A stretch of DNA of 64,000 nucleotides from the NCBI RefSeq assembly GCF_044324875.1, contig NZ_CP172186.1; one strand, given 5' to 3'. Of this stretch, positions 4,297 to 32,493 are shown piece after piece (within the stretch, counting starts at the first letter, position 1; each line of letters starts with the position of its first letter). The position numbers and the translations under genes were made by a program. The notes beneath the pieces were generated by a model that ran no database searches, had not been told where the DNA came from, and saw only the letters and a list, made by a program, of their open reading frames with translations. Source of the DNA: Escherichia coli (GTDB lineage Bacteria > Pseudomonadota > Gammaproteobacteria > Enterobacterales > Enterobacteriaceae).

Positions 4297-6570
4297 TTAA
4301 TGTCCGGGCCACTCCTGTTGTTCAGTGACGTGATGTGATATTTCTTCTTTAGCTGTAGCCTCATTCTGGAGGTTTGAAGTAAATATACGCTCCATTGTTT
4401 GTGCAACCGATGGTGGCATTTTTTCTTCCACACGTTCCTCTTCCGGACAACTCTGTGTGATATAGCATACGTGCCGTTCTTCCCGGGATGTGGTATTGAT
4501 GATGTGAACTGCCTTGTTCCACAGGCTGTTTCCCCGGGCAGAGATATCTGTATCATATTGCGGAAGCAGATCCAGCGATGTTTGTGTTTCGTTAAGCTGC
4601 TTCTGGAAGGTATCGATGATACGGTAAGGCTCTGTACGGTTTTTACGACGTTTACGGGATGGTTTTGCTGTCAGTACACCAATAATGCTGCTGACATGCT
4701 CCGGTGTGGGAAAACGGCGCTGCACTGTCCTGGGGACGAGACGGCGGAGACGCTCCAGGCGGGGGGCTTCAACGGAAATATAGCGGTTGATGACCACCGG
4801 ATCACTGTCGCAACTTTTCTCGCTGTCCGGAATATACACAGAGGCTGACGGCACCACATCCCCCTGGAAAACGGTAAAGAACTCACCGGCATTCAGTCTG
4901 ATCAAATCCTGCACGTCGATTTTGCTTTCCATCTGGATGGTGATCTGGTTACCGTCCACCCAGGACTCACCCATCACACCATCGTGGCGCTGCAGGCTGC
5001 CCATTCTGGCCCGAGCCTCTTCACCGGCGGCATTTTTCACCGTTCTTGCCGTTTTGTCGTCACTGACAATGCGTCCGGCGAATTTGGTGCCGGCGTTCTG
5101 CATCAGTGTGGCGGTGTTGGTGGCGGAGGTCTGCCCTTCAATTCGCTCCTGATCCTGCGCCATCATTATCAGGGAAAACTCCAGTGAACGTACCTGGGTG
5201 GCCTCCACAGCAATGCGGTCTGTGTAGTAGGCACCGACTTCGTCAAGGATACAGATATAGGGGAAGCGGCCTTTGTATTTTTTTACTTCCAGGGTCTGTG
5301 CGTCTGTGCCTTCCAGGCGGTAGCCCAGGTCACGGGCGAGGATCATGCTCTGCTGGGTGATGAACATACGACCGAGTGCCGACGTGGTATGGGCTGATGT
5401 GTCCAGTGCGGGGATCATCACAATCAGAATTCGGTCGCTGTGGATACTGTCGCGAATATCGATGTCGCCGGCATCTGCCGCAAAGACGTCCCCGAAGGTT
5501 TCGGCAAAGGTTGTGAATGTTTCCGAGAACTGACCGGAGAGATAAGCATGCTGTTTACGGGGCTCCTCAGTCCAGGCTGACGGCGTTCTCACCAGTGACA
5601 TATCGAATCCCGGAACGTCCTGCAGGTAATTTCTCAGTGGTGCGATGGCTTCTTCCGGCCACTGGTCATCAAGCCCACGGCAATAGAGTTTTGCCATACC
5701 TTCCAGCGTCATATGCTCCCGTAACATCTGCAGGGACATGGTTTTTCTTTCCCGGACGCACCAGAATTTTGTGCCAAAGACCAGGGCTTTGTTCATGGCT
5801 ATCGCCCGTGACTGCCATTCACCCCCCTGAACGTTCTGGGGAAGCATGGACTGCATGGTTTCGGCGGTGAAGGCTTCGGTGCTGAATGCGAACGGGTTCC
5901 AGGTGTTTGACTGTGGGCGGGATTTTTCGCCGCTCTGAATGATTTCACTGCGGGATTTTCCGCCGTTCATGAAGTTGATGACCTCGATATCATCCTCCCG
6001 GCCAAAACGTCGGGAGAGATACCAGATTGTCCTCGTGGTATCGTTCTGTGCCTTTCCGTCAACAAAGGTAAAGCCTCTTCCCCAGCAGAGAGGGTTGAGC
6101 AGCCAGGCAAAGGTGGTTTCTGTTTTACCGCCACCGGTGGTGGAAAAAAATATGATATGCCGGGTGAGGTCATCCATGCTCAGCCAGAGCTCACGACCGA
6201 TATCGTTGATACGGCGGTAACCGACATAAAAAATCCCCCGTGCGGGGGATGTTTCATCTGCTTCATACTGAAACAGGGTGGGCCAGAAGCTGAAGAGGCT
6301 TCGCCTGACCTTTCTGTCCTGGGAGGGGTCATCAAGGCTGAGCGTCATGGGCATACGCAGGGGGCATCGCCAGCGTTGCAGCGTGAATATCACGGAGGTG
6401 ACCAGGGTGAACAGCAGACAGACAGGAAGGGCCAGTGGCCATATCAGGGCCGTAATGATACTGCCGGCCAGACACAGACCAATGATGTTCAGGTTGTGCA
6501 GTGCATTCCACAGCGGGTTTCCCCAGGCCGTGCGGTGTATGAGGTCAGGATTAACGTGATGCTGGCTCAT
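4297..6570 (-). CDS. trbC: Type IV coupling protein, TrbC/DotL(IcmO)-like
   Basis: 757 aa, N-terminal TM helices, Walker A STTGGGKTET; last gene of a trbA-trbB-trbC unit as in IncI1. Confidence 0.75.
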   Translation of the reverse strand: MSQHHVNPDLIHRTAWGNPLWNALHNLNIIGLCLAGSIITALIWPLALPVCLLFTLVTSVIFTLQRWRCPLRMPMTLSLDDPSQDRKVRRSLFSFWPTLFQYEADETSPARGIFYVGYRRINDIGRELWLSMDDLTRHIIFFSTTGGGKTETTFAWLLNPLCWGRGFTFVDGKAQNDTTRTIWYLSRRFGREDDIEVINFMNGGKSRSEIIQSGEKSRPQSNTWNPFAFSTEAFTAETMQSMLPQNVQGGEWQSRAIAMNKALVFGTKFWCVRERKTMSLQMLREHMTLEGMAKLYCRGLDDQWPEEAIAPLRNYLQDVPGFDMSLVRTPSAWTEEPRKQHAYLSGQFSETFTTFAETFGDVFAADAGDIDIRDSIHSDRILIVMIPALDTSAHTTSALGRMFITQQSMILARDLGYRLEGTDAQTLEVKKYKGRFPYICILDEVGAYYTDRIAVEATQVRSLEFSLIMMAQDQERIEGQTSATNTATLMQNAGTKFAGRIVSDDKTARTVKNAAGEEARARMGSLQRHDGVMGESWVDGNQITIQMESKIDVQDLIRLNAGEFFTVFQGDVVPSASVYIPDSEKSCDSDPVVINRYISVEAPRLERLRRLVPRTVQRRFPTPEHVSSIIGVLTAKPSRKRRKNRTEPYRIIDTFQKQLNETQTSLDLLPQYDTDISARGNSLWNKAVHIINTTSREERHVCYITQSCPEEERVEEKMPPSVAQTMERIFTSNLQNEATAKEEISHHVTEQQEWPGH

Positions 6571-20569: not shown

Positions 20570-21147
20570 TCTTTTTTCTCCGTTTTCAGGGGATACAGGA
20601 TGTCTGGTACGCGGTGACTGTGTGATTCCGGCAGCGGAGCCAGCGGGAAACACTGGAAGCGGCGCGTGATCCATCCCTGACGGTTACGGTTATCGATGAG
20701 CGTGAAGGTACGACGCTTCACGCGTTTCAGTGTCGGGGTGTCGCTTTCCATGACCGGCCAGTCTCCGGCTGTGAGTGCCGGTGTGCCGGGGACATCCGGC
20801 CACAGCCAGGTGTTGTCAGACATCAGCGCCGTGAGAGGCGAGGGCAGAAGCCAGTGAATGACATGCTGTATATCAAAAGGCGGTCGCTCCGGCACGTTAA
20901 CCTGCCAGGTGGCCGTTGTTATCAGCGTGCCTGTCTCTCCGGGCAGGGCCAGGCGAATACCACTCATCTCCCCGTCAGCCCGTCTGTCACTGGCAAAAAT
21001 GACCCGGGGATTGGGGGACGGTCGCAGTGTGAAGCAGGCGGACGGCAGGGTGAAGCTGAAACTGTCACCGTCCACGCGCAGCGTTTTCAGGAAGACCTGT
21101 CCCCGTGCAGGACGCCGGCAGCGGGGAGTGATGTGTATGCTGTACAT
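20527..21147 (-). CDS. traV: TraV
   Basis: 206 aa, stop/start coupled to traU; assigned by synteny. Confidence 0.5.
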   Translation of the reverse strand: MYSIHITPRCRRPARGQVFLKTLRVDGDSFSFTLPSACFTLRPSPNPRVIFASDRRADGEMSGIRLALPGETGTLITTATWQVNVPERPPFDIQHVIHWLLPSPLTALMSDNTWLWPDVPGTPALTAGDWPVMESDTPTLKRVKRRTFTLIDNRNRQGWITRRFQCFPLAPLPESHSHRVPDILYPLKTEKKECKDNQQPHCLHSW

Positions 21148-24100
21148 CAGAGGTGATATCCCTGCTTACGGATGAGTTCCGCAGCCAGATCATGGATGAC
21201 GTTTTCACTGTCATGTGTACGGGCGCGGTGTTCTATCAGTGAGGTGGCTGAACCACGGGGAAAGTTTTCTGCCAGGATCTGGCGTGCCCGCAGTGACCCG
21301 AGCTCCTGCGTCAGCGCACGTCTCAGGGCGCTGTCTTTGGGTGAGGAATTCAGAGCCCACAGCTCCAGTGGACCGAGAGTGAATTTCAGGATCCGGGCCA
21401 GCGTACCGTTTTTTACACGGAACACAGCCAGTACCGGGACACCGCTGCCATCCGGTGCAGCCCCTTCCGGCATTTTCAGAAAGCGCCGCAGGGTGACTTC
21501 AGGGACACCAAAATTATCCCGCAGAAACGGAATTTCGTCAGGGCGGTAACGCAGCAACCAGAGGGTGTTGGCGGATTTGAGAACTGCCGGTGGATAGTCC
21601 TGCAGTAGCTGGGTGCTCAGCACTGTGCGTATCCCGAACTTACGCTGCTCCAGCTCCTGGGTGTCCAGGGCTTCCCAGATGAAGTTGATCCCTTTTGCAT
21701 TGTGCAGTTCGTCATAGACTTTGGTCTTGACCTCCTGATCAAGCTGTTCAATGCGGCGGAAAATCACCTCATGGTAGCGTGGGTCGAGATTTTTCCGTAT
21801 TTCCTCCTGATACTGCGGCAGGACAAAATCCCCGCCGGCGATTTGTCCTGCCAGCAGGTACATGATGCCGGTGCGCAGACGCCCGGCAGGTGTCTTGTCA
21901 CCGGCCACATTGTTCAGATCAACGGCCACAACGCGGGTGTCGGGGCTGAGCATAAACCGGGTACAGCCGGACATCATCGGGTAGTCACTGTGTCCCTGAT
22001 CGAGGGCACGGCGGATGTAGTCCAGTAACAATTCTGCTGAGTTATCGCGCTGAACTGTGCCGAACACATCCCGGATGGATGGCTGTCCCAGCAGGGCGGA
22101 CATTTCAGCCAGCAGGGGCATGGCCTGGTAGTGTGCCCGCTGGGCTGCGGGGATATTGCCAGCCATATGCAGCATGTCCCTGATTTCAAACCAGGTGGCA
22201 GCATTCCACCATCCAGAGTCATGTTGTTCTGCGATGCCACTCTCTTCCAGGGCGAGATCCACAAGGGGCTCTGTTCCTGCACGGTACAGTCTGGGGTTGT
22301 TTTCGCCATACTCCCTGAAGGCCAGATCCACCAGGTTGCTTATGATTTGCCGGGTGTCACCGGGATTACAGGGCTGACCGGTGCCGGTATCCACGCACAG
22401 TGCGCAGAGTACAGATACCATGAAGTTCTTTTCCGGGGTGGCGGGTTTTTTAGCACCGTACATCACATCAAACAGGTTACGGGTGTGTTCCGGATCATTG
22501 CTCAGAATGATCCCCACGGCTTCGTCCTTTCTCTGCTCCGGCAGGCTGTCACGGATAAGCTGTACCAGTCCCTGTGCACTGAATCCCTTGTCGATATAGG
22601 CAATGAAAGGCAGGTTCTTCTGGGCTGAGGCTATCTGGATCTCCGACAGTGCGTTGATGAGTACCGATTTGCCCAGACCGGGTGCGCCGGGCGTCAGTTC
22701 CGTGTGCTTGTTCTGTTGTGACGATGCCAGTGCGACCTCCCATGCAGAGCCGTCCTCGGTGTGCATCATCAGATTTCCCTGTCCCCGCCAGACAGAGCCT
22801 GCCCTGTTCAGGGGAAACAGGGAAAGGGCGTGTGAAAGGGGCGGGTAAAGGGGGATCGGGCCGGAGCTGTGGGAGGCTGCCAGAACCGTGTTCACCCAGG
22901 CACGTCTCGGATCACCGAAGGTGGTGGTGGTGCCGCATACCCCCCAGCCTTCCAGCGCAGATTTCAGGAGAGCCTGGTTACGGGTACAGACTTCCCGGCT
23001 GTTTCCCCATGTGGTGGCAACAATGGTCATGATACAGACCGGATCATGTTTGTTGATGTCATTCAGCATCATCACCGAGTCATACATGGGCCGGAGAGGG
23101 GAAATAAAGCTGCTGTAGGTTAGCAGGGTTTTCTTGACTCCAAGCGCCTTCATGCCGCCGGGCATCAGATCCATCCGGATACGCCAGGGGATTGCGCGGG
23201 GCACATCCCTGACCAGCTGGTTGAATGTCCGCAGATTCTGGGGTGGCAGGGTAATGGCGACCATACCGTGCCAGAGGTCACCGGCCTTTATCAGGCTGCC
23301 GTGTGTTTCAGGCTGTGTGGTGAATAACTGCAGATTCAGCGACGGTGCGTGGAATACAGAGGTATCCTCGCCCTGTCGCCAGCCGGCAGGACGGGCATCT
23401 TCAGGCAGATGAGGCTGCCATACTGCAGGTGTGCTGTTGCGCTCCAGTTGACGGCGGATTTCCCGTCCCACTTCATGAATATCCATCAGGCGAACCAGCA
23501 GACCATCAGAATCATGTGTCAGGGCCTGCTCCAGCGTGTCCAGAAAGGCGTCATGCCGTATTTTGAGTGCGGAAAGTGTCCAGCGCCATGGATCCTGCGC
23601 AAATCGGGCTGGCGGAGCGTGTTCAGCGAGTTTCCTGATACGGGTCTGGTGGTCCTTGCGATCGGTCCGGCTCAGCAGTTCTTCAGAGCTCCAGACGGTC
23701 AGCCAGCAGCGTTCCCGGACAAGCCAGGGGGTGAGGGTGGTGACTTTTTCATCCAGAACGTCCTGAAGCAGGATCCCCGTACGTGCGATGGATTTTCGCT
23801 GGGGTAAGAGCATGGCTTCGATTTCATCCCTTCCACGCTCCGGATCGCGTTCGAAAACAAAACTGATTTTGTGACCGGTGTTTTTATAGGCAGTGTTCAT
23901 TCGCTCTGCCAGCGCTGTAATCAGTGATTCCAGTGTGCCGGGGGCTGTCAGGTCCGGGTTTTCATCCATTTCTTTCAGGGCACCGCTGATTTCAAAGACG
24001 GAAAGGTAATACCCCTGTTTTGTGGTGGCAATGTAGGGGGCTTTCAGCCAGGGGCGGCGTTCGCGGTCCTGTTGGTCCAGACCGATGACGGTGTGCAGAT

Positions 24101-24203
24101 CACAGTAATCGGGGAAGAATGCGGAAACGGAATACCGTGACAGGGTACTGATACAGTCTTCAATGGCAAAAATAATGCGGTTGATATTCATGGCATGGAG
24201 CAC
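21147..24203 (-). CDS. traU: TraU ATPase (DotO/IcmB-like, VirB4-class)
   Basis: 1018 aa, Walker A GAPGLGKS; size matches IncI1 TraU. Confidence 0.85.
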   Translation of the reverse strand: MLHAMNINRIIFAIEDCISTLSRYSVSAFFPDYCDLHTVIGLDQQDRERRPWLKAPYIATTKQGYYLSVFEISGALKEMDENPDLTAPGTLESLITALAERMNTAYKNTGHKISFVFERDPERGRDEIEAMLLPQRKSIARTGILLQDVLDEKVTTLTPWLVRERCWLTVWSSEELLSRTDRKDHQTRIRKLAEHAPPARFAQDPWRWTLSALKIRHDAFLDTLEQALTHDSDGLLVRLMDIHEVGREIRRQLERNSTPAVWQPHLPEDARPAGWRQGEDTSVFHAPSLNLQLFTTQPETHGSLIKAGDLWHGMVAITLPPQNLRTFNQLVRDVPRAIPWRIRMDLMPGGMKALGVKKTLLTYSSFISPLRPMYDSVMMLNDINKHDPVCIMTIVATTWGNSREVCTRNQALLKSALEGWGVCGTTTTFGDPRRAWVNTVLAASHSSGPIPLYPPLSHALSLFPLNRAGSVWRGQGNLMMHTEDGSAWEVALASSQQNKHTELTPGAPGLGKSVLINALSEIQIASAQKNLPFIAYIDKGFSAQGLVQLIRDSLPEQRKDEAVGIILSNDPEHTRNLFDVMYGAKKPATPEKNFMVSVLCALCVDTGTGQPCNPGDTRQIISNLVDLAFREYGENNPRLYRAGTEPLVDLALEESGIAEQHDSGWWNAATWFEIRDMLHMAGNIPAAQRAHYQAMPLLAEMSALLGQPSIRDVFGTVQRDNSAELLLDYIRRALDQGHSDYPMMSGCTRFMLSPDTRVVAVDLNNVAGDKTPAGRLRTGIMYLLAGQIAGGDFVLPQYQEEIRKNLDPRYHEVIFRRIEQLDQEVKTKVYDELHNAKGINFIWEALDTQELEQRKFGIRTVLSTQLLQDYPPAVLKSANTLWLLRYRPDEIPFLRDNFGVPEVTLRRFLKMPEGAAPDGSGVPVLAVFRVKNGTLARILKFTLGPLELWALNSSPKDSALRRALTQELGSLRARQILAENFPRGSATSLIEHRARTHDSENVIHDLAAELIRKQGYHL

Positions 24204-24489: not shown

Positions 24490-24526
24490 ATGAAGGGGTT
24501 CTACGCCGGAACCGCCGAAATTTCCG

Positions 24527-25120
<594 letters not shown>

Positions 25121-25148
25121 TAAACTCCCTGAGAAAGAGGTAAACAGA

Positions 25149-25475
25149 ATGACTAAAAATACTCGTTTTTCCCCCGAAGTCCGTCAGAGGGCGATTCGTA
25201 TGGTTCTGGAAAGTCAGGGCGAATATGACTCACAGTGGGCGGCAATTTGTTCCATTGCCCCAAAGATTGGCTGTACACCGGAGACTCTGCGTGTCTGGGT
25301 ACGCCAGCATGAGCGGGATACCGGAGGCGGTGATGGCGGGCTCACCACCGCTGAACGTCAGCGTCTGAAAGAGCTGGAACGTGAAAATCGTGAACTGCGC
25401 CGCAGTAACGATATCCTTCGCCAGGCTTCCGCTTATTTTGCGAAGGCGGAGTTCGACCGCCTCTGGAAAAAGTGA
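25149..25475 (+). CDS. IS3-family transposase OrfA (HTH)
   Basis: 108 aa [19 protein letters not shown]..., leucine-zipper region; overlaps orfB start. Confidence 0.9.
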
Positions 25476-26362
25476 TGCCACTGCTGGATAAGCTGCGTAA
25501 GCTGTACGGGGTCGGACCGGTATGCAGTGAACTACATATTGCCCCGTCAACGTATTACCACTGTCAGCAACAGCGACATCATCCTGATAAACGCAGTGCC
25601 CGTGCGCAGCGCGATGACTGGCTGAAGAAAGAGATACTGCGCGTATACGATGGGAATCATCAGGTATACGGTGTGCGTAAAGTCTGGCGTCAGTTGTTAC
25701 GGGAAGGAATCAGGGTAGCCAGATGTACAGTGGCGCGCCTCATGGCGGTTATGGGACTTGCCGGTGTTCTCCGGGGTAAAAAGGTCCGCACTACCGTCAG
25801 CCGGAAAGCCGTTGCCGCAGGCGACCGCGTAAACCGTCAGTTTGTGGCAGAACGTCCTGACCAGTTGTGGGTGGCTGATTTTACTTACGTCAGCACATGG
25901 CAGGGGGTCGTCTATGTGGCGTTCATCATTGATGTGTTTGCCGGATACATCGTGGGGTGGCGGGTCTCATCGTCTATGGAAACGACATTCGTGCTGGATG
26001 CTCTGGAGCAGGCGTTATGGGCCCGTCGACCGTCCGGCACAGTCCATCACAGTGATAAAGGTTCTCAGTATGTATCGCTGGCCTACACACAGCGGCTTAA
26101 GGAAGCCGGATTACTGGCATCAACAGGAAGTACTGGTGACTCGTATGACAACGCGATGGCGGAGAGCATCAATGGCCTTTACAAAGCGGAGGTAATACAC
26201 CGTAAGAGCTGGAAAAACCGGACAGAAGTGGAGCTGGCCACACTCACGTGGGTGGACTGGTATAACAATCGACGATTGCTGGAAAGGCTGGGCCATATCC
26301 CACCGGCAGAAGCAGAAAAAGCTTATTATGCTTCCATCGGAAACGATGATCTGGCAGCCTGA
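25472..26362 (+). CDS. IS3-family transposase OrfB (DDE)
   Basis: 296 aa, rve domain; made as OrfAB fusion by -1 frameshift in this family. Confidence 0.9.
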
Positions 26363-26405
26363 GTTCACAGATAAAACACTCTCCAGGAAACCCGGGGCGG
26401 TTCAA

Positions 26406-28271
26406 AACGTCAGCCACATCACAAAATGGTAGCTGTTCATAGAATCGCGTCTCTTTTGCCTTATTACGATTGACAACGGGTTTATGCCAAGTCAGCTTCT
26501 GCGTTTCTCTATCGTATATCACATGCTTCAACTTTCCCTGTTTTAGCTCGCGGTTGAATGCTTTCCATTGTCGATGCAGTTCAGACTCCAACTTCTTTAG
26601 TTGTGTTTTGATCGGCTTGTGCAAAAATGGGATATTCATTTCAGCCAGCACCGTCGCCTTTTTTCCTTCTGGTACCAGTTCATCAGAAAGATGACGATGA
26701 CGGAGACTGTTATTGAGGTGGAATTCACCTGCCTGAAAGCGTTTTCTAATCTGTCGGTAGAGCCAGAACTCATAGCGCCCAGCATTCAGTCCAATGACTT
26801 CGCCACTCTCATCAAACTCTAGCAAATACGGGCGTAATCGTTTGGGTAATGTTCCCTTTGGGCATTCTGTTAGTGGTCGCTGCGAAAGCGTCTGCTTTTT
26901 ACTGAATACCACCTTAAGCCAGTTCATGGCTTTTACCCACGGACTATCGCTGACTACACTGTTGAGGTCGAGCGACAGAAATAATGGTCGAAGGTGACGC
27001 CGGATTAATCCGGTCATACCATCGACAGCTTGCCACTGTAATGCCAGTTTGCTGACGGGTTTTACGCTCATACGCTGAGCGGTGGTTTGCAGTGTCTCCC
27101 GTGGCATAATCTTCCACGCTCTACGGCGCACTTCGCCAAAGGTGGTAAAGTCTGAGACACTATCATCAACATAAAGAGACAGCAGTCGTCCGATCTTAGG
27201 CGTTTCACGCCGGTGTTTTTCTTGAACGTCAACCAGAAGCTGCTTAGCTACACGGCGACTCTCATCCTCGATCTTTTTCAAATGGAAAAACATGGCTTCC
27301 ACCAAGTTATCGCTGAACTGACGATAACGAACCCATGCATAACACAGCAGATAAAGACGCGCCTGCTCGGGTTTCAGTTGACGCAGATCGTAAACGGTAT
27401 AGAAATTTGCCAGACTCGCGTAGTACAACAGGTTTTGCTGAGAAATATTCAGTGTAGGTAAAATATTGCAGGCTTTATGGTGCAGTGCTTCCAAAATGGT
27501 TCGTTTTTCCCTTTCTTGGGTCATCTGTCGCCATCCGAAGTCTCGGGCATCTTGCCTGAGAATGGCAAGGCGGGAAAGAGTTTCATCGCGTTCAATCAGC
27601 TTGTTCAAATGAGCAATAGTCGCGTCATCGAGTTGTTCCGTTAAAATATGTCCTAATCTTTGTCTTTCATTAGAAAGGACTTTGCTGACTAGCTCTTGAA
27701 GTGTGGTATAGCCGGGTCTGATAATTTTGTTCTCGTTGAGCCAGATAATTAGCTCTGTGGCAACAAATCCGGGAGTGATATCGCGGTGAACAATATGGAC
27801 AGCTTGTTGTTCAACCAATGAAGACAATGCTGAGGACCATGGACGATAATTATACAATTTGAATATTTTTTCTCGCTGAGCATAGCGTTCATATTTAGAG
27901 GGCGATTGAAGTGGAATTGACTCTCCAGGAAAATAACGACTCAGGATAAAGTTGCAGTCGTCCAAGACATCATGCCAATTGAAATGAAAAAACAGACTTT
28001 TAGCTTTAAAGTAAGCAATCTGCAGAATGCAACAAAGCTGCGCATGAAGCCCTTTTCGACTGTTGACTAACGCTAACTCCGATTCATCCAGAACCAAAAA
28101 CTCTAATTGTTGTGCATCATCGAAATCAGGGAGGCCATAGAGAGCTTCTTGTTCAGCATTACTTAATACCGCTAGTCGTTCACTTTTACCAGCGGCTTTA
28201 CCACCACTTACCATCTTGCCCCCCGAAATTAATGTCCGTAAGAGGATCGTTAAGCGGACAGTAATAACCAC
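26406..28271 (-). pseudogene. tnpA: Tn3-family transposase tnpA, N-terminal ~620 codons (interrupted, internal deletion)
   Basis: Tn3-type TnpA N-terminal region; ORF-track frame runs into IS629; combined fragments shorter than a ~1000-aa TnpA. Confidence 0.8.
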
Positions 28272-28362
28272 TTTTATAATCCGCCTATTTATTAGGCTGA
28301 CGTTGTCTCATATAACTGGTACGATATCAATCTCTTTTATCCCCCCTTAAACGTACATTAAT
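28272..28362. promoter_or_regulatory. Probable res site / divergent tnpA-tnpR promoter region
   Basis: Intergenic between divergently oriented tnpA and tnpR, the usual res position in Tn3-family elements; inferred, subsites not mapped. Confidence 0.4.
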
Positions 28363-28938
28363 ATGACTGGAATCAAGATTGGCTATGCTCGTTGCTCCAC
28401 AGACCAACAAGACCTAACTGCCCAGATAGATGCGCTGATAAATCTAGGCATTTCCACTGACAGGATCTATACAGACAAAGGACTGACTGGTTCAAACCGA
28501 CAGAGGCCGGGCCTAGAACAGGCGCTTGCAGCGGTTCGAGAGGGAGATACGCTAGTTGTTCCAAAACTAGATCGTTTAGCCCGTTCAGTACCTGATGCAA
28601 GAGGTATTGCTGATATCCTACAAGCTCGAGGAGCGAAACTCGCTCTAGGGGACAGTATCTATGATCCAACAGACCCGATGGGGAAAATGTTCTTCAATAT
28701 TCTTGCTACTTTTGCAGAGTTTGAAGGAGACCTTATTCGACTACGAACTAAAGAGGGGATGGCTGTTGCCCGTTCAAAGGGAAAATTGAAAGGAAAACAG
28801 CCTAAATTATCTGAAAAACAACAAAAAGAACTATGCCGTATGCGTGATACTGGCCAGTACTCTATCAGCGATCTAGCGGAACTATTTACCGTCTCGCGTG
28901 CAACGGTTTATCGAACACTTTCACGAGGACAAAAATGA
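28363..28938 (+). CDS. tnpR: Serine recombinase (resolvase) TnpR
   Basis: 191 aa, GYARCSTDQQ catalytic serine motif, C-terminal HTH. Confidence 0.9.
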   Translation: MTGIKIGYARCSTDQQDLTAQIDALINLGISTDRIYTDKGLTGSNRQRPGLEQALAAVREGDTLVVPKLDRLARSVPDARGIADILQARGAKLALGDSIYDPTDPMGKMFFNILATFAEFEGDLIRLRTKEGMAVARSKGKLKGKQPKLSEKQQKELCRMRDTGQYSISDLAELFTVSRATVYRTLSRGQK

Positions 28939-29149
28939 CCGATTTAACTACACAGCAACATCTAGTAAAAATTGTCCATGATTATGCCTGCCCTCAAAAG
29001 GGTCATGGACAGTCCATCAAAGGTTCAAATGGATTACATCTGCATTCAATACCCAGATTACTTCCGCTTTGCTAAATGGATAGAACGGTTGGCGTAGGGT
29101 ATTGTTGATGGTGTAATTAAAGTTCCTAAAGATCATTAAAATATCAGAT

Positions 29150-29188
29150 CGGAAATTTAGGCGGTTCCGGCGTAGAACCCAGAACCCC
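29150..29188. repeat. Internal third copy of the Tn3-family terminal IR (variant terminus)
   Basis: CGGAAATTTAGGCGGTTCCGGCGTAGAACCCAGAACCCC, same orientation as the right-end IR at 31234-31267. Confidence 0.8.
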
Positions 29189-29197
29189 TTATCCGAA

Positions 29198-30061
29198 TTA
29201 TTGTTCAGTTAACTTCATTTCGACAAGTAAAGGTAAATGATCTGAGACAGATGCATATGGCTTACTTTCAGGGGTCGCTCTATCTGACGGTTTAGGAATA
29301 TATACATCTTTAATGTCCCATTTTTGAGCATTTGATGTAAGTATATAATCAATTTTCCTGTCTGGATTCCATGATGGTGCCGTGTACTTCAATTCCTTAT
29401 CAGTGTCATTGAACCATGCTGTTAAATCCAAGTACTCTGTTGATTGAGGTGGTAAATTAAGATCACCCACTATAATTGGAAGTGCATTTTTAAACTGCCA
29501 AGAAGAGAATTTTGTTTGAAGAGTTCTTACTTGCTCTGCTCGTAATGGCTGCGTAGTGAAGTCCAAATGAGTAGTTACTAACATAACAGGCGCAGGATAA
29601 TTAGGGACATCAACTTCTACAGCACAGGCCGCTCTTTGCTCCGCACCTTTGATGTTAGGTAGTTCCATCCTTTTACTCAATTTCAAATCATACTTAGACA
29701 GTACTGCTGTACCATATTCCCCACCATCATGATCTATAGCCTTGCAGAAGTAATAATTCATTCCCAACTTATTAGCTATATACTCTGCTTGATTGACTGG
29801 GTTAGAACCCTCTTTACTAAAGTTCTTACCAGAACGCCTAGTCATGTTATCAACTTCTTGCAGTCCAATAATATCAACATTCATTTTACGAATTGCTTCT
29901 ACAATGGCATCAGTACTCCCCATTCTAGAGGCCATTATGTTATATGACCCAACACGAATACTATCGGTATCTGCTGGACCATCCATGAGGCGATCAGAAG
30001 CTAAAGTTGAAGAGGAAAGAACTATAAACCCTATAACCGCAGCAATGCTTGTTAATTTCAT
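29198..30061 (-). CDS. Secreted endonuclease/exonuclease/phosphatase (EEP, DNase I-like fold) family protein
   Basis: 287 aa, N-terminal signal peptide, SYNIM...GLQEV and C-terminal SDHLP motifs; AT-rich; cargo inside transposon. Confidence 0.7.
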   Translation of the reverse strand: MKLTSIAAVIGFIVLSSSTLASDRLMDGPADTDSIRVGSYNIMASRMGSTDAIVEAIRKMNVDIIGLQEVDNMTRRSGKNFSKEGSNPVNQAEYIANKLGMNYYFCKAIDHDGGEYGTAVLSKYDLKLSKRMELPNIKGAEQRAACAVEVDVPNYPAPVMLVTTHLDFTTQPLRAEQVRTLQTKFSSWQFKNALPIIVGDLNLPPQSTEYLDLTAWFNDTDKELKYTAPSWNPDRKIDYILTSNAQKWDIKDVYIPKPSDRATPESKPYASVSDHLPLLVEMKLTEQ

Positions 30062-30062
30062 T

Positions 30063-30390
30063 TGGATTTGCCCCTATATTTCCAGATACCTGTTATCACT
30101 TAACCCATTACTGGCTTGCTGCCGTAGATATTCCCGTGGCGAGCGATAACCCAGTGCACTATGCGGATGCCATTCGTTATAATGCTCGAACGCCTCTGCA
30201 AGGTTCTTTGCTGCCGTTAACCCGTCTGGTTTGGGCATGACACTGATGTAGTCACGCTTTATCGTTTTCACGAAGCTCTCTGCTATGCCGTTACTCTCCG
30301 GACTCCGCACCGCCGTGCTCTTCGGTTCAAGCCCCAACATCCGGGCAAACTGCCGTGTTTCATTAGCCCGGTAGCATGAACCATTATCCG
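30063..30390 (-). mobile_element. IS2 remnant (3' end of orfB plus terminal IR)
   Basis: IS2 end TGGATTTGCCCCTATATTTCCAGA; translation matches IS2 OrfB C-terminus; junction with IS1 approximate. Confidence 0.8.
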
Positions 30391-30937
30391 TCATCCATAT
30401 CACCACGTCAAAGGGTGACAGCAGGCTCATAAGACGCCCCAGCGTCGCCATCGTGCGTTCACAGAATACGTGCGCAACAACCGTCTTCCGGAGCCTGTCA
30501 TACGCGTAAAACAGCCAGCGCTGGCGCGATTTAGCCCCGACATAGCCCCACTGTTCGTCCATTTCCGCGCAGACGATGACGTCACTGCCCGGCTGTATGC
30601 GCGAGGTTACCGACTGCGGCCTGAGTTTTTTAAGTGACGTAAAATCGTGTTGAGGCCAACGCCCATAATGCGGGCAGTTGCCCGGCATCCAACGCCATTC
30701 ATGGCCATATCAATGATTTTCTGGTGCGTACCGGGTTGAGAAGCGGTGTAAGTGAACTGCAGTTGCCATGTTTTACGGCAGTGAGAGCAGAGATAGCGCT
30801 GATGTCCGGCGGTGCTTTTGCCGTTACGCACCACCCCGTCAGTAGCTGAACAGGAGGGACAGCTGATAGAAACAGAAGCCACTGGAGCACCTCAAAAACA
30901 CCATCATACACTAAATCAGTAAGTTGGCAGCATCACC
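30390..30937 (-). mobile_element. IS1 remnant (IR, insA, 5' two-thirds of insB) fused to the IS2 remnant
   Basis: IS1 terminus GGTGATGCTGCCAACTTA at 30920-30937; InsB sequence ends at WMTD then continues as IS2 OrfB. Confidence 0.8.
30607..30882 (-). CDS. insA: IS1 InsA
   Basis: 91 aa [30 protein letters not shown]... Confidence 0.85.
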
Positions 30938-31267
30938 CGCGAATTATTAAATAAATACCATGGGCTCTCTCGTATTAGCCAAAAATTAAGGCAAAAAGGC
31001 TCGAGACCTTAGTAATAGAACAAGAGCTTGAAGATACCGATGTCAATTGGTTTGAGACGTGCCTTAAAGCAAAAGAAAAAAGTTTGGCAGCAGCTTCCCC
31101 CAAAATCAGAGTTAGAAAACAAAGATGATTCGTGACCTTCTATATTAAGGTCACTCGTTATCAATGATATTAGAGTGCATAAGCAAATAGAAAGAACATA
31201 CCAGTCAATTACTTATACTTTCTTTGACTCAATGTCGGAAATTTCGGCGGTTCCGGCGTAGAACCCC

Positions 31268-31678
31268 ATGAAGTTGTTTTCTCCGTTTCCTTAATGAAAA
31301 TTCAGCCAGAGGCGCAGCAGGATGATTATGTAGTGCACTTAATGCCCTGTTGAACTGAAGTATTCCGGCAATATCCATCCATGAGAGATATTTATCGACG
31401 CTCACTGTGACGGTGATGCAGTCATGGGTACGGGATTTTTCATGAATTTCTGCAGCCAGAAAGAGCAGCCAGCCGCCGTTAAATGCCGGGTGGCGGAGAA
31501 TGAACCGGGCAATCTCTTTTTCAACTCCATCAGGCGGAATATCGTCCGTCAGTGTCCGGATAATAAAGTGCCGGAATGCATCAGCGGTGAACTGATATGC
31601 GGCAGAGAGGGTATCCATTTTTGTTCCTCTGTAAGTTGAGAGGGCCGGCAGAACGTCACCGGCACCGGTGTGTGTCAC
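31268..31678 (-). pseudogene. 5' part of the tra-region gene disrupted by the Tn3-family insertion
   Basis: ORF-track ORF 31229-31678 takes its last 13 codons from the transposon IR; native frame continues at 24489-24367. Confidence 0.55.
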
Positions 31679-32493
31679 ATGACGTACTTTTTGTCAGGAA
31701 ACGAATCCGGCAGCAGGATAAGCGCCACACCGTCCATTTTCTCCCGCAACATTTGACGCTGTGCCGGCGGCCAGCGGCGCAGTGCATCAGCAAAATCCGC
31801 CGGACGCCAGGTGCGAAATTTCTCCTCAACGGCCAGGCGGTTCTGTACCAGGGCATTCAGTACGGCCCGTCCCTGTCTGACTCGCTTACGCTCATCGCTG
31901 AAAATTTCCTTCAGTGCCCGTGCATTGAGAGCAACTACCGAGGCCGGATGCAAATCAGGGAGCCAGACCATCACCCCCTGTGCGGCAGCGTAGCCGTTCA
32001 GGCAGTGCCAGGCGTGGCAGAAGGCACAGAGATGAAAGGGCGGGCCTTCCGGCTGCAGCAGTTCACTTTCATTTTCGCTGAGTGCATCTGTTGTGACGAT
32101 TTGTGACTTTTCCACATGACGCAGGGCCAGTCGCCTGGCCGACAGGCGGGCCTGTGCCAGGGACCGCTCCGCATCCTGCAGGGTTCGGGTGTGTTTCTTT
32201 TTTTCGTCAGCGTTTTCCGGTACCGGATGTTTTTTCAGGCGCATCACCCGGGTGAGGTTTTTTTCCAGCAGGACGACCGTATCCCGGCAGGTGTCAGCCA
32301 TCTGCTGTAATGGCCATGAATCCTCCAGAATGAAGCGGTGAGTGACGGTCCTGCGACAGCAGGGACAGCGTCCGGGTGTTGAGAGCACGGGTGGTGGCAG
32401 CAGGGATTCACCGCTGAATACCGTGTCCGGTTGCGGGAGCGGGAAAAGCCAGCGTTCCCGGGCCGGGGCGATGAGTGGCGGTGTTTTGTTCAT
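31675..32493 (-). CDS. Tra-region protein (traS/traT position), unknown function
   Basis: 272-aa ORF coupled to neighbours; no recognised domain. Confidence 0.5.
   Translation of the reverse strand: MNKTPPLIAPARERWLFPLPQPDTVFSGESLLPPPVLSTPGRCPCCRRTVTHRFILEDSWPLQQMADTCRDTVVLLEKNLTRVMRLKKHPVPENADEKKKHTRTLQDAERSLAQARLSARRLALRHVEKSQIVTTDALSENESELLQPEGPPFHLCAFCHAWHCLNGYAAAQGVMVWLPDLHPASVVALNARALKEIFSDERKRVRQGRAVLNALVQNRLAVEEKFRTWRPADFADALRRWPPAQRQMLREKMDGVALILLPDSFPDKKYVM

Follow-up and report, generated by a model that had tools for sequence, protein, structure and literature searches.

The window analysed here is a stretch of 64,000 nucleotides from Escherichia coli (contig NZ_CP172186.1 of assembly GCF_044324875.1). 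Between positions 24490 and 31272 it contains a transposon bounded by terminal inverted repeats (IRs) and carrying a third, internal IR copy, which we call IR′. The features of this region are listed below in order.

24490-24494, no strand: left copy of the target duplication ATGAA, directly flanking the left IR
24495-24526, searched IR matches the minus strand (0 mismatches): left terminal IR (IRL), GGGGTTCTACGCCGGAACCGCCGAAATTTCCG, 100% complementary to 31236-31267
24527-24907, minus strand: 3′ fragment of tnpA, codons 891-1015 plus the stop codon, located by tblastn with the intact Providencia TnpA
24908-25094, plus strand: 187-bp fragment of IS100 (IS21 family), a 100% match to istA, in place of tnpA codons 605-890
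25095-26404, plus strand: complete IS3-family insertion sequence (IS1203/IS629-like) inside tnpA, with 25-nt IRs at 25095-25119 and 26380-26404
26405-28214, minus strand: 5′ fragment of tnpA, codons 1-604, with the DUF4158 region and the DDE domain missing, located by tblastn
28215-28362, no strand: 148-bp tnpA-tnpR intergenic region, the presumed res site from its position and Tn3-family organisation
28363-28938, plus strand: intact tnpR, encoding a 191-aa serine resolvase (Pfam Resolvase, 1.1e-39, plus HTH_7)
29150-29188, plus strand: IR′, with the normal-register match at 29150-29181 (2 mismatches)
29198-30061, minus strand: cargo gene of the endonuclease/exonuclease/phosphatase (EEP) family, 287 aa
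30063-30385, minus strand: right-end remnant of an IS2-like (IS3-family) element, abutting the EEP start codon
30386-30937, minus strand: partial IS1A, of which 552 of 768 bp are left, joined to the remnant of the IS2-like element
30938-31193, plus strand: degraded 3′ portion of a passenger gene resembling recX, with 84% identity to the recX-IR end of the Vibrio qingdaonensis element (L046)
31236-31267, plus strand: right terminal IR (IRR; 0 mismatches), which serves as the functional outer end and comes from the second transposon described below
31268-31272, no strand: right copy of the target duplication ATGAA, directly flanking IRR

The element is carried by a plasmid of IncK2/Z or IncI type and sits within its transfer region, between a gene for a 1018-aa TraU-like ATPase (21147-24203) and a small ORF upstream of traT (31229-32493 region).

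We scanned the window with the 32-nt IR CGGAAATTTCGGCGGTTCCGGCGTAGAACCCC, allowing at most 3 mismatches and using 100 shuffles as a control. Exactly three matches were found in the 64 kb, against 0 expected from the shuffles. The outer IRs are perfect 32-nt repeats starting GGGGTTCT, and the internal match differs from them at 2 of 32 positions. The sequence at 29150-29188 is therefore a third, homologous IR copy, as the initial annotation had proposed, and the proposed layout of IR, tnpA/tnpR, IR′, cargo and IR is borne out by the three mapped repeats. Its orientation was also read correctly, since IR′ and the right end are both plus-strand matches, as was its single substitution, which we place at 29159 as a C to A change. 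The extra material at its tip had been described as 6 bp, AGAACC, and is in fact a 7-bp tandem duplication of AGAACCC, so that IR′ measures 39 nt compared with 32 nt for the outer IRs.

The tip of IR′ reads GTAGAACCC-AGAACCC-C, where the outer IR has GTAGAACCCC, and the duplicated tip ends in ...AGAACCCC. In the normal register the two differ only in the terminal base (...CCCA in IR′, ...CCCC in the outer IR). We also considered whether the AGAACCC(C) following IR′ might be host DNA or a further IR remnant, and rejected this because an identity of 7-8 nt to the tip is unlikely to arise by chance. In Vibrio europaeus the second unit of the repeat has diverged (GGAACCCC), as would be expected of a tandem duplication of some age. 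The core of the IR was also found in 81 stretches across many Proteobacteria among representative genomes, and the tip duplication was absent from all 81 of these IR-bearing stretches.

Tn3-family transposons have IRs of about 38 bp starting with GGGG, 5-bp AT-rich target duplications, replicative transposition through cointegrates, and target immunity. By its transposase, its IRs, its 5-bp duplication and its resolvase, the element in the window is a transposon of this family. The intact 1015-aa TnpA of Providencia matches PF01526 (1.8e-105) and PF13700, and its DDE_Tnp_Tn3 domain spans residues 602-994. Because codons 605-890, and with them most of the DDE domain, have been lost from tnpA in the window, this copy cannot supply transposase; it is an IS-riddled, non-autonomous fossil that is unable to move by itself. 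PGAP calls a partial Tn3-family transposase in the identical copy on pLH50-c-A, where the same insertion carries the IS100 fragment and the tnpA deletion but lacks the IS3-family element. The tnpR gene is adjacent to tnpA and divergent from it, and may form a resolution module together with a putative res site in the region between the two genes. A small ORF at 28936-29105 overlaps the tnpR stop codon and seems to have been shortened in the lineage of the window; in the short Vibrio forms described below it corresponds to a 90-aa gene annotated as "arylsulfatase regulator".

The closest separate homologues of the EEP cargo gene are found in Aeromonas, Vibrio, Photobacterium and Aliivibrio, at 58-80% identity and on contigs of up to megabase size. 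From reading the sequence we suspect an N-terminal signal peptide in its product, and a sequence search of the PDB with the protein gave no match at E<=0.01. The gene has lost its original upstream region: the end of the IS2-like element lies 1-2 nt upstream of the start codon and has replaced the native ribosome-binding site and promoter that are present in the Vibrio and Providencia copies. The ORF at 30074-30688 within these scars encodes a 204-aa chimeric frame joining IS1 InsB to IS2 OrfB.

The ATGAA copies on either side of the element, together with the uninterrupted site ...GAGATGCAGTTGTTTTC... carried by many related IncK/I-type plasmids (e.g., pLS45-2), indicate that the whole element moved as one unit. 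The same IRL...IR′...IRR structure occurs on p12100-PER of Providencia rettgeri, which has the intact 1015-aa TnpA and is flanked by the duplication AGTAA, and on chromosome 2 of V. europaeus, where the duplication is AATTA and the site is unrelated to the others. This V. europaeus copy (L085 927-3081) is a non-autonomous derivative of 2155 bp from which tnpA, res and tnpR are missing, and its duplicated tip has diverged to GTAGAACCCGGAACCCC. The outer pair, IRL and IRR, has thus been used in three independent transposition events, in the window, in Providencia and in V. europaeus. Of the two right ends that the initial annotation set against each other, the equivalent of 31267 is used in all three insertions, and no element ends at 29188; short forms of the element do end nearby, at the equivalent of 29181, without the duplication. 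In annotation, the transposon boundary should accordingly be placed at 31267 rather than 29188, and the copy in the window should be marked as non-autonomous.

The short form measures about 4.1 kb and consists of IRL, tnpA, res, tnpR, the small ORF and an IR, ending exactly at the position of IR′, where its tip is the normal ...CCCC. The Photobacterium damselae copy shares 93% identity with the left module of the window and lies between repeats of the target duplication ATATA; further copies occur in Vibrio campbellii, Vibrio parahaemolyticus and Vibrio gelatinilyticus. On these alignments, IR′ is best read as the ancestral right end of a 4.1-kb core transposon, and the duplication beside the P. 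damselae relative argues that this core transposes independently as the short form.

A closer relative, the short form on plasmid p152 of Proteus terrae, matches the left module of the window at 99.9% identity and has the same C to A variant. Its right tip abuts the interior of an unrelated IS1 that is itself interrupted, and a scan of the first 150,000 of the 152,824 bp of p152 detected neither a second copy of the short form nor a target duplication. In the 230 bp before IR′, p152 and the enterobacterial long forms have at least three derived substitutions in common in addition to the C to A change. The Vibrio long forms carry the tip duplication and are without these derived substitutions. 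This pattern suggests that short forms may still emerge from long ones. Judged from the alignments, either the duplication would have been precisely lost in the Proteus lineage, or recombination would have mixed the modules.

The origin of the right end can be traced through V. qingdaonensis. The element of this species (L046) has tnpA and tnpR genes about 92% identical to those described here and no IR′, and it carries an intact recX gene of 146 aa (Pfam RecX HTH1-3) followed by the same right-end IR. A 381-aa ORF with a weak match to the DnaJ domain precedes recX in this element (L046 5728-9681), and both passengers lie near the right IR. To our knowledge, recX is unusual as a gene borne on a transposon. 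On two plasmids, Proteus terrae p52 and pZF2-cfr (L005 804-937 and L006 5746-5882), the right end survives only as its final 134 bp, IRR among them; the rest was cut away by IS26. The flanking sequence there, ATTTTGGC..., is similar to the DNA on the left of the V. campbellii short form (L009).

An older state of the right part is preserved on Vibrio tapetis pVT1 and in V. europaeus, both without the IS1 and IS2 scars; an IS6-family element has cut off the left side of the V. tapetis copy. The EEP gene in these copies is preceded by its AT-rich promoter region, then by ATGAT and a fourth IR tip of the left type, GGGGTTCT(A/G)CGCCGGAAC, of which about 18-21 nt match the IR. This tip points towards the EEP gene, facing IR′, and is fused directly to the middle of recX. 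The right unit in the Vibrio copies reads IR tip, 360 bp, IR. The homology to recX and the junction in mid-recX indicate that the right module is a second transposon that has been gutted, leaving an IR tip, a deletion, the 3′ part of recX and IRR. The distal stump contains no tnpA remnant, and it comes from a related but different element rather than from a second copy of the same transposon. Since IR tips face the EEP gene from both sides, the gene appears to have lain outside both elements.

In the window the fourth tip is absent as a result of a 92-bp deletion between AATTA repeats in the enterobacterial lineage. IS1 was considered as the cause of this loss and rejected: the IS1 in the Providencia copy retains its own 9-bp target duplication, CGCGAATTA, which is also the first 9 bp of the recX remnant in the window. 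A separate 92-bp deletion must therefore have preceded the arrival of IS1. The order of scars in the enterobacterial lineage is thus the 92-bp deletion and then IS1, followed in the lineage of the window by the IS2-like element and a deletion joining IS1 to IS2.

These results bear on the suggestion that the element is a minimal Tn3 joined to an IR-bounded cargo cassette. Of the options offered by the initial annotation, the first part of this suggestion is the nearest to the findings, in that the core does exist alone and has been joined to DNA ending in an IR. The right part, however, is not an IR-bounded cassette, because IR′ and the right IR are direct repeats and cannot form a transposable unit. 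A module of IR′, cargo and IR standing alone, which was proposed as something to look for, was encountered solely in V. tapetis, where it results from the cut by the IS6-family element.

From these observations we infer the following history, to which we assign a probability of about 0.8: two related Tn3-family elements came to flank an EEP gene, and after the second had been gutted the outer ends came to work as a pair. A cryptic Tn3-family transposon of about 4.1 kb would have inserted immediately downstream of a resident EEP gene on a replicon of Vibrionaceae type. A second, related transposon of the V. qingdaonensis type, with recX beside its right IR, would have come to lie beyond the EEP gene, at a distance of about 1 kb. 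This second element would then have suffered an internal deletion that spared about 20 nt of the left IR tip, together with the 3′ half of recX and the right IR. The transposase of the first element could pair IRL with the distal IRR, allowing the core, the EEP gene and the stump to move as a 6.2-kb unit that would make 5-bp target duplications. The 7-bp duplication at IR′ would have displaced the conserved GGGGT cleavage box relative to the part of the repeat that the transposase binds, favouring use of the outer end.

Target immunity in the Tn3 family disfavours two related elements lying about 1 kb apart (PMC10250215). Neither an intermediate with two complete elements around the EEP gene nor a naive EEP locus was found. 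Immunity in this family is not absolute, and the origin of Tn1721 needs the same exception.

One alternative is nested insertion, in which the 4.1-kb element entered a larger recX transposon that already carried the EEP gene as a passenger, in the same orientation, and recombination between the tnpA-tnpR regions then dropped one copy. The V. qingdaonensis lineage does carry passengers between tnpR and recX, and tnpA/tnpR genes that are about 92% identical are similar enough to recombine. However, this scheme does not account for the V. tapetis and V. europaeus copies, in which a left-type tip joined to mid-recX faces IR′, and the outward-pointing tips on both sides make the EEP gene look external rather than like a passenger. 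It also requires insertion into an immune target, and we regard it as unlikely. Far less probable still is one-ended transposition, as raised by the initial annotation, or read-through, in which transposition began at IRL, missed IR′ and stopped at a fortuitous IR-like sequence. Such events are generally known for Tn3-family elements, need only a single IR, and give products with variable end points. Here, in contrast, the IR at the right end matches at 32/32 positions, the subterminal recX sequence beside it derives from a transposon, and three independent insertions share this same end, each with a 5-bp duplication, which speaks firmly against the idea.

The remaining alternative concerns the present state of IR′ and supposes a functional dual transposon like Tn1721/Tn1722, in which IR′ is active, the 4.1-kb core and the 6.2-kb element both move, and the duplication is neutral. 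The Proteus short form fits this picture, being 99.9% identical to the enterobacterial left module with the same derived substitutions and C to A change, and the DNA beyond its tip is internal sequence of an unrelated IS1, as it would be at a used end. That tip is, however, without the duplication, so that the end used was a normal one, and no target duplication accompanies it. The duplicated tip was never seen as a terminal junction in the plasmid collection, the complete E. coli genomes, the representative genomes or the metagenome contigs. Every duplicated IR′ inspected instead runs on into EEP sequence (six copies, on plasmids and one chromosome, and four metagenome contigs), and 22 plasmid records match contiguously from the DNA downstream of tnpR across IR′ into the EEP gene. 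In V. europaeus, 4 of the 39 nt of IR′ have changed, compared with 3-4% in the flanks, while IRL is conserved at 32/32 positions; these numbers are small, and the divergence hints at relaxed constraint on IR′. We consider an active IR′ with a neutral duplication unlikely, though somewhat less so than nested insertion.

Work on Tn4430 offers a way in which the duplication could act. Its TnpA reads the inner IR boxes in cis through its DNA-binding domains, and for cleavage the catalytic part of the protein contacts "box A", the GGGGT at the terminus, in trans (PMC9579193). At IR′, the 7-bp duplication leaves an intact GGGGTTCT tip displaced by 7 bp, a shift that would separate TnpA binding from cleavage. 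By analogy with Tn4430, the tip duplication probably disables the internal end, making IR′ a poor or dead one. If IR′ is dead, the long form would be stabilised and the outer end favoured. One could also imagine a reversible switch based on slippage, in which the duplication, when present, directs transposition to the distal IR so that the cargo travels, and its precise loss releases the 4.1-kb core. The unduplicated tip of the Proteus short form and its derived substitutions place it inside the clade of duplicated forms, a hint of such a switch, although we give this idea only a low probability, on a par with that of the dual transposon.

With this capture by two flanking elements as the preferred reading, the architecture is a three-IR composite of the Tn1721 type, a kind that is already known. 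The accepted origin of Tn1721 is that two Tn1722 copies flanked a tet region and one was partly deleted, resulting in three IRs, and either the whole element or the minor transposon is able to move (PMC5736529). Like Tn1721/Tn1722, which belong to the Tn21-type subgroup, the element in the window has three IRs in all, and the two that bracket the captured region share one orientation. Both also have a complete minor transposon from IRL to the internal IR, a distal remnant of a second transposon, and 5-bp duplications. They differ in that the parents here were two different, related elements, and the distal stump is a fragment of a recX passenger rather than a truncated tnpA. The internal IR of Tn1721 is intact and equivalent to the distal one, whereas IR′ differs by its substitution and 7-bp duplication, and the vestigial fourth IR tip of the Vibrio copies further sets the present element apart. 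The cargo is tetA/tetR in Tn1721 and an EEP-family gene here.

A second comparison is with TIME-COMP elements, in which, as here, a gene between two sets of Tn3-family IRs is mobilised and only the outermost IRs are used (PMC4133298, PMC13367494). The Vibrio right unit resembles a TIME formed by internal deletion, and the V. europaeus copy is likewise without transposase (PMC4133298, PMC13367494). In a TIME-COMP, however, short non-autonomous IR-IR miniature elements form both boundaries, while the left boundary here is a full transposon. The right unit, again unlike TIME-COMP, has kept no more than about 20 nt of a left IR and was not found as a mobile element standing alone. The nearest relatives are the cryptic 4.1-kb transposons on Vibrio, Photobacterium and Proteus plasmids, which PGAP annotates as "Tn3 family transposase" and which equal the left module in gene order and IR at 93-99.9% identity. 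These have a normal tip and lack the EEP gene, the recX stump and the third IR. A full-text literature search with the IR sequence gave no match, and we found no published transposon name for the element.

The element leaves the current understanding of Tn3-family biology unchanged. Its value is as a traceable case of passenger capture in this family, in which two elements bracket a resident gene and their outer ends come into use as the inner ones decay. Several intermediate states are kept in various hosts: the short form, the long form before and after it lost the fourth tip, a non-autonomous derivative, and IS-riddled fossils such as the copy in the window. An EEP gene of Vibrionaceae type, possibly encoding a secreted product, has moved into Providencia and into IncK/I-type and other plasmids of poultry-associated E. 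coli.

Related IRs were also observed in other arrangements. In Phaseolibacter flectens (L059 ~4383-4431) and Buttiauxella sp. B2 (L090 ~85-130), two IRs stand back to back as a palindrome of about 44 nt, GGGGTTCTACGCCGGAATTTTCGGCGGTTCCGGCGTAGAACCCC, and these may be miniature elements consisting of IRs only. In addition, about 600 Klebsiella plasmid records, of the virulence type represented by pLVPK and pK2044, contain a 40-nt match to the IRR region at 95% identity, which points to a related Tn3-family IR that would be common on virulence-type plasmids.
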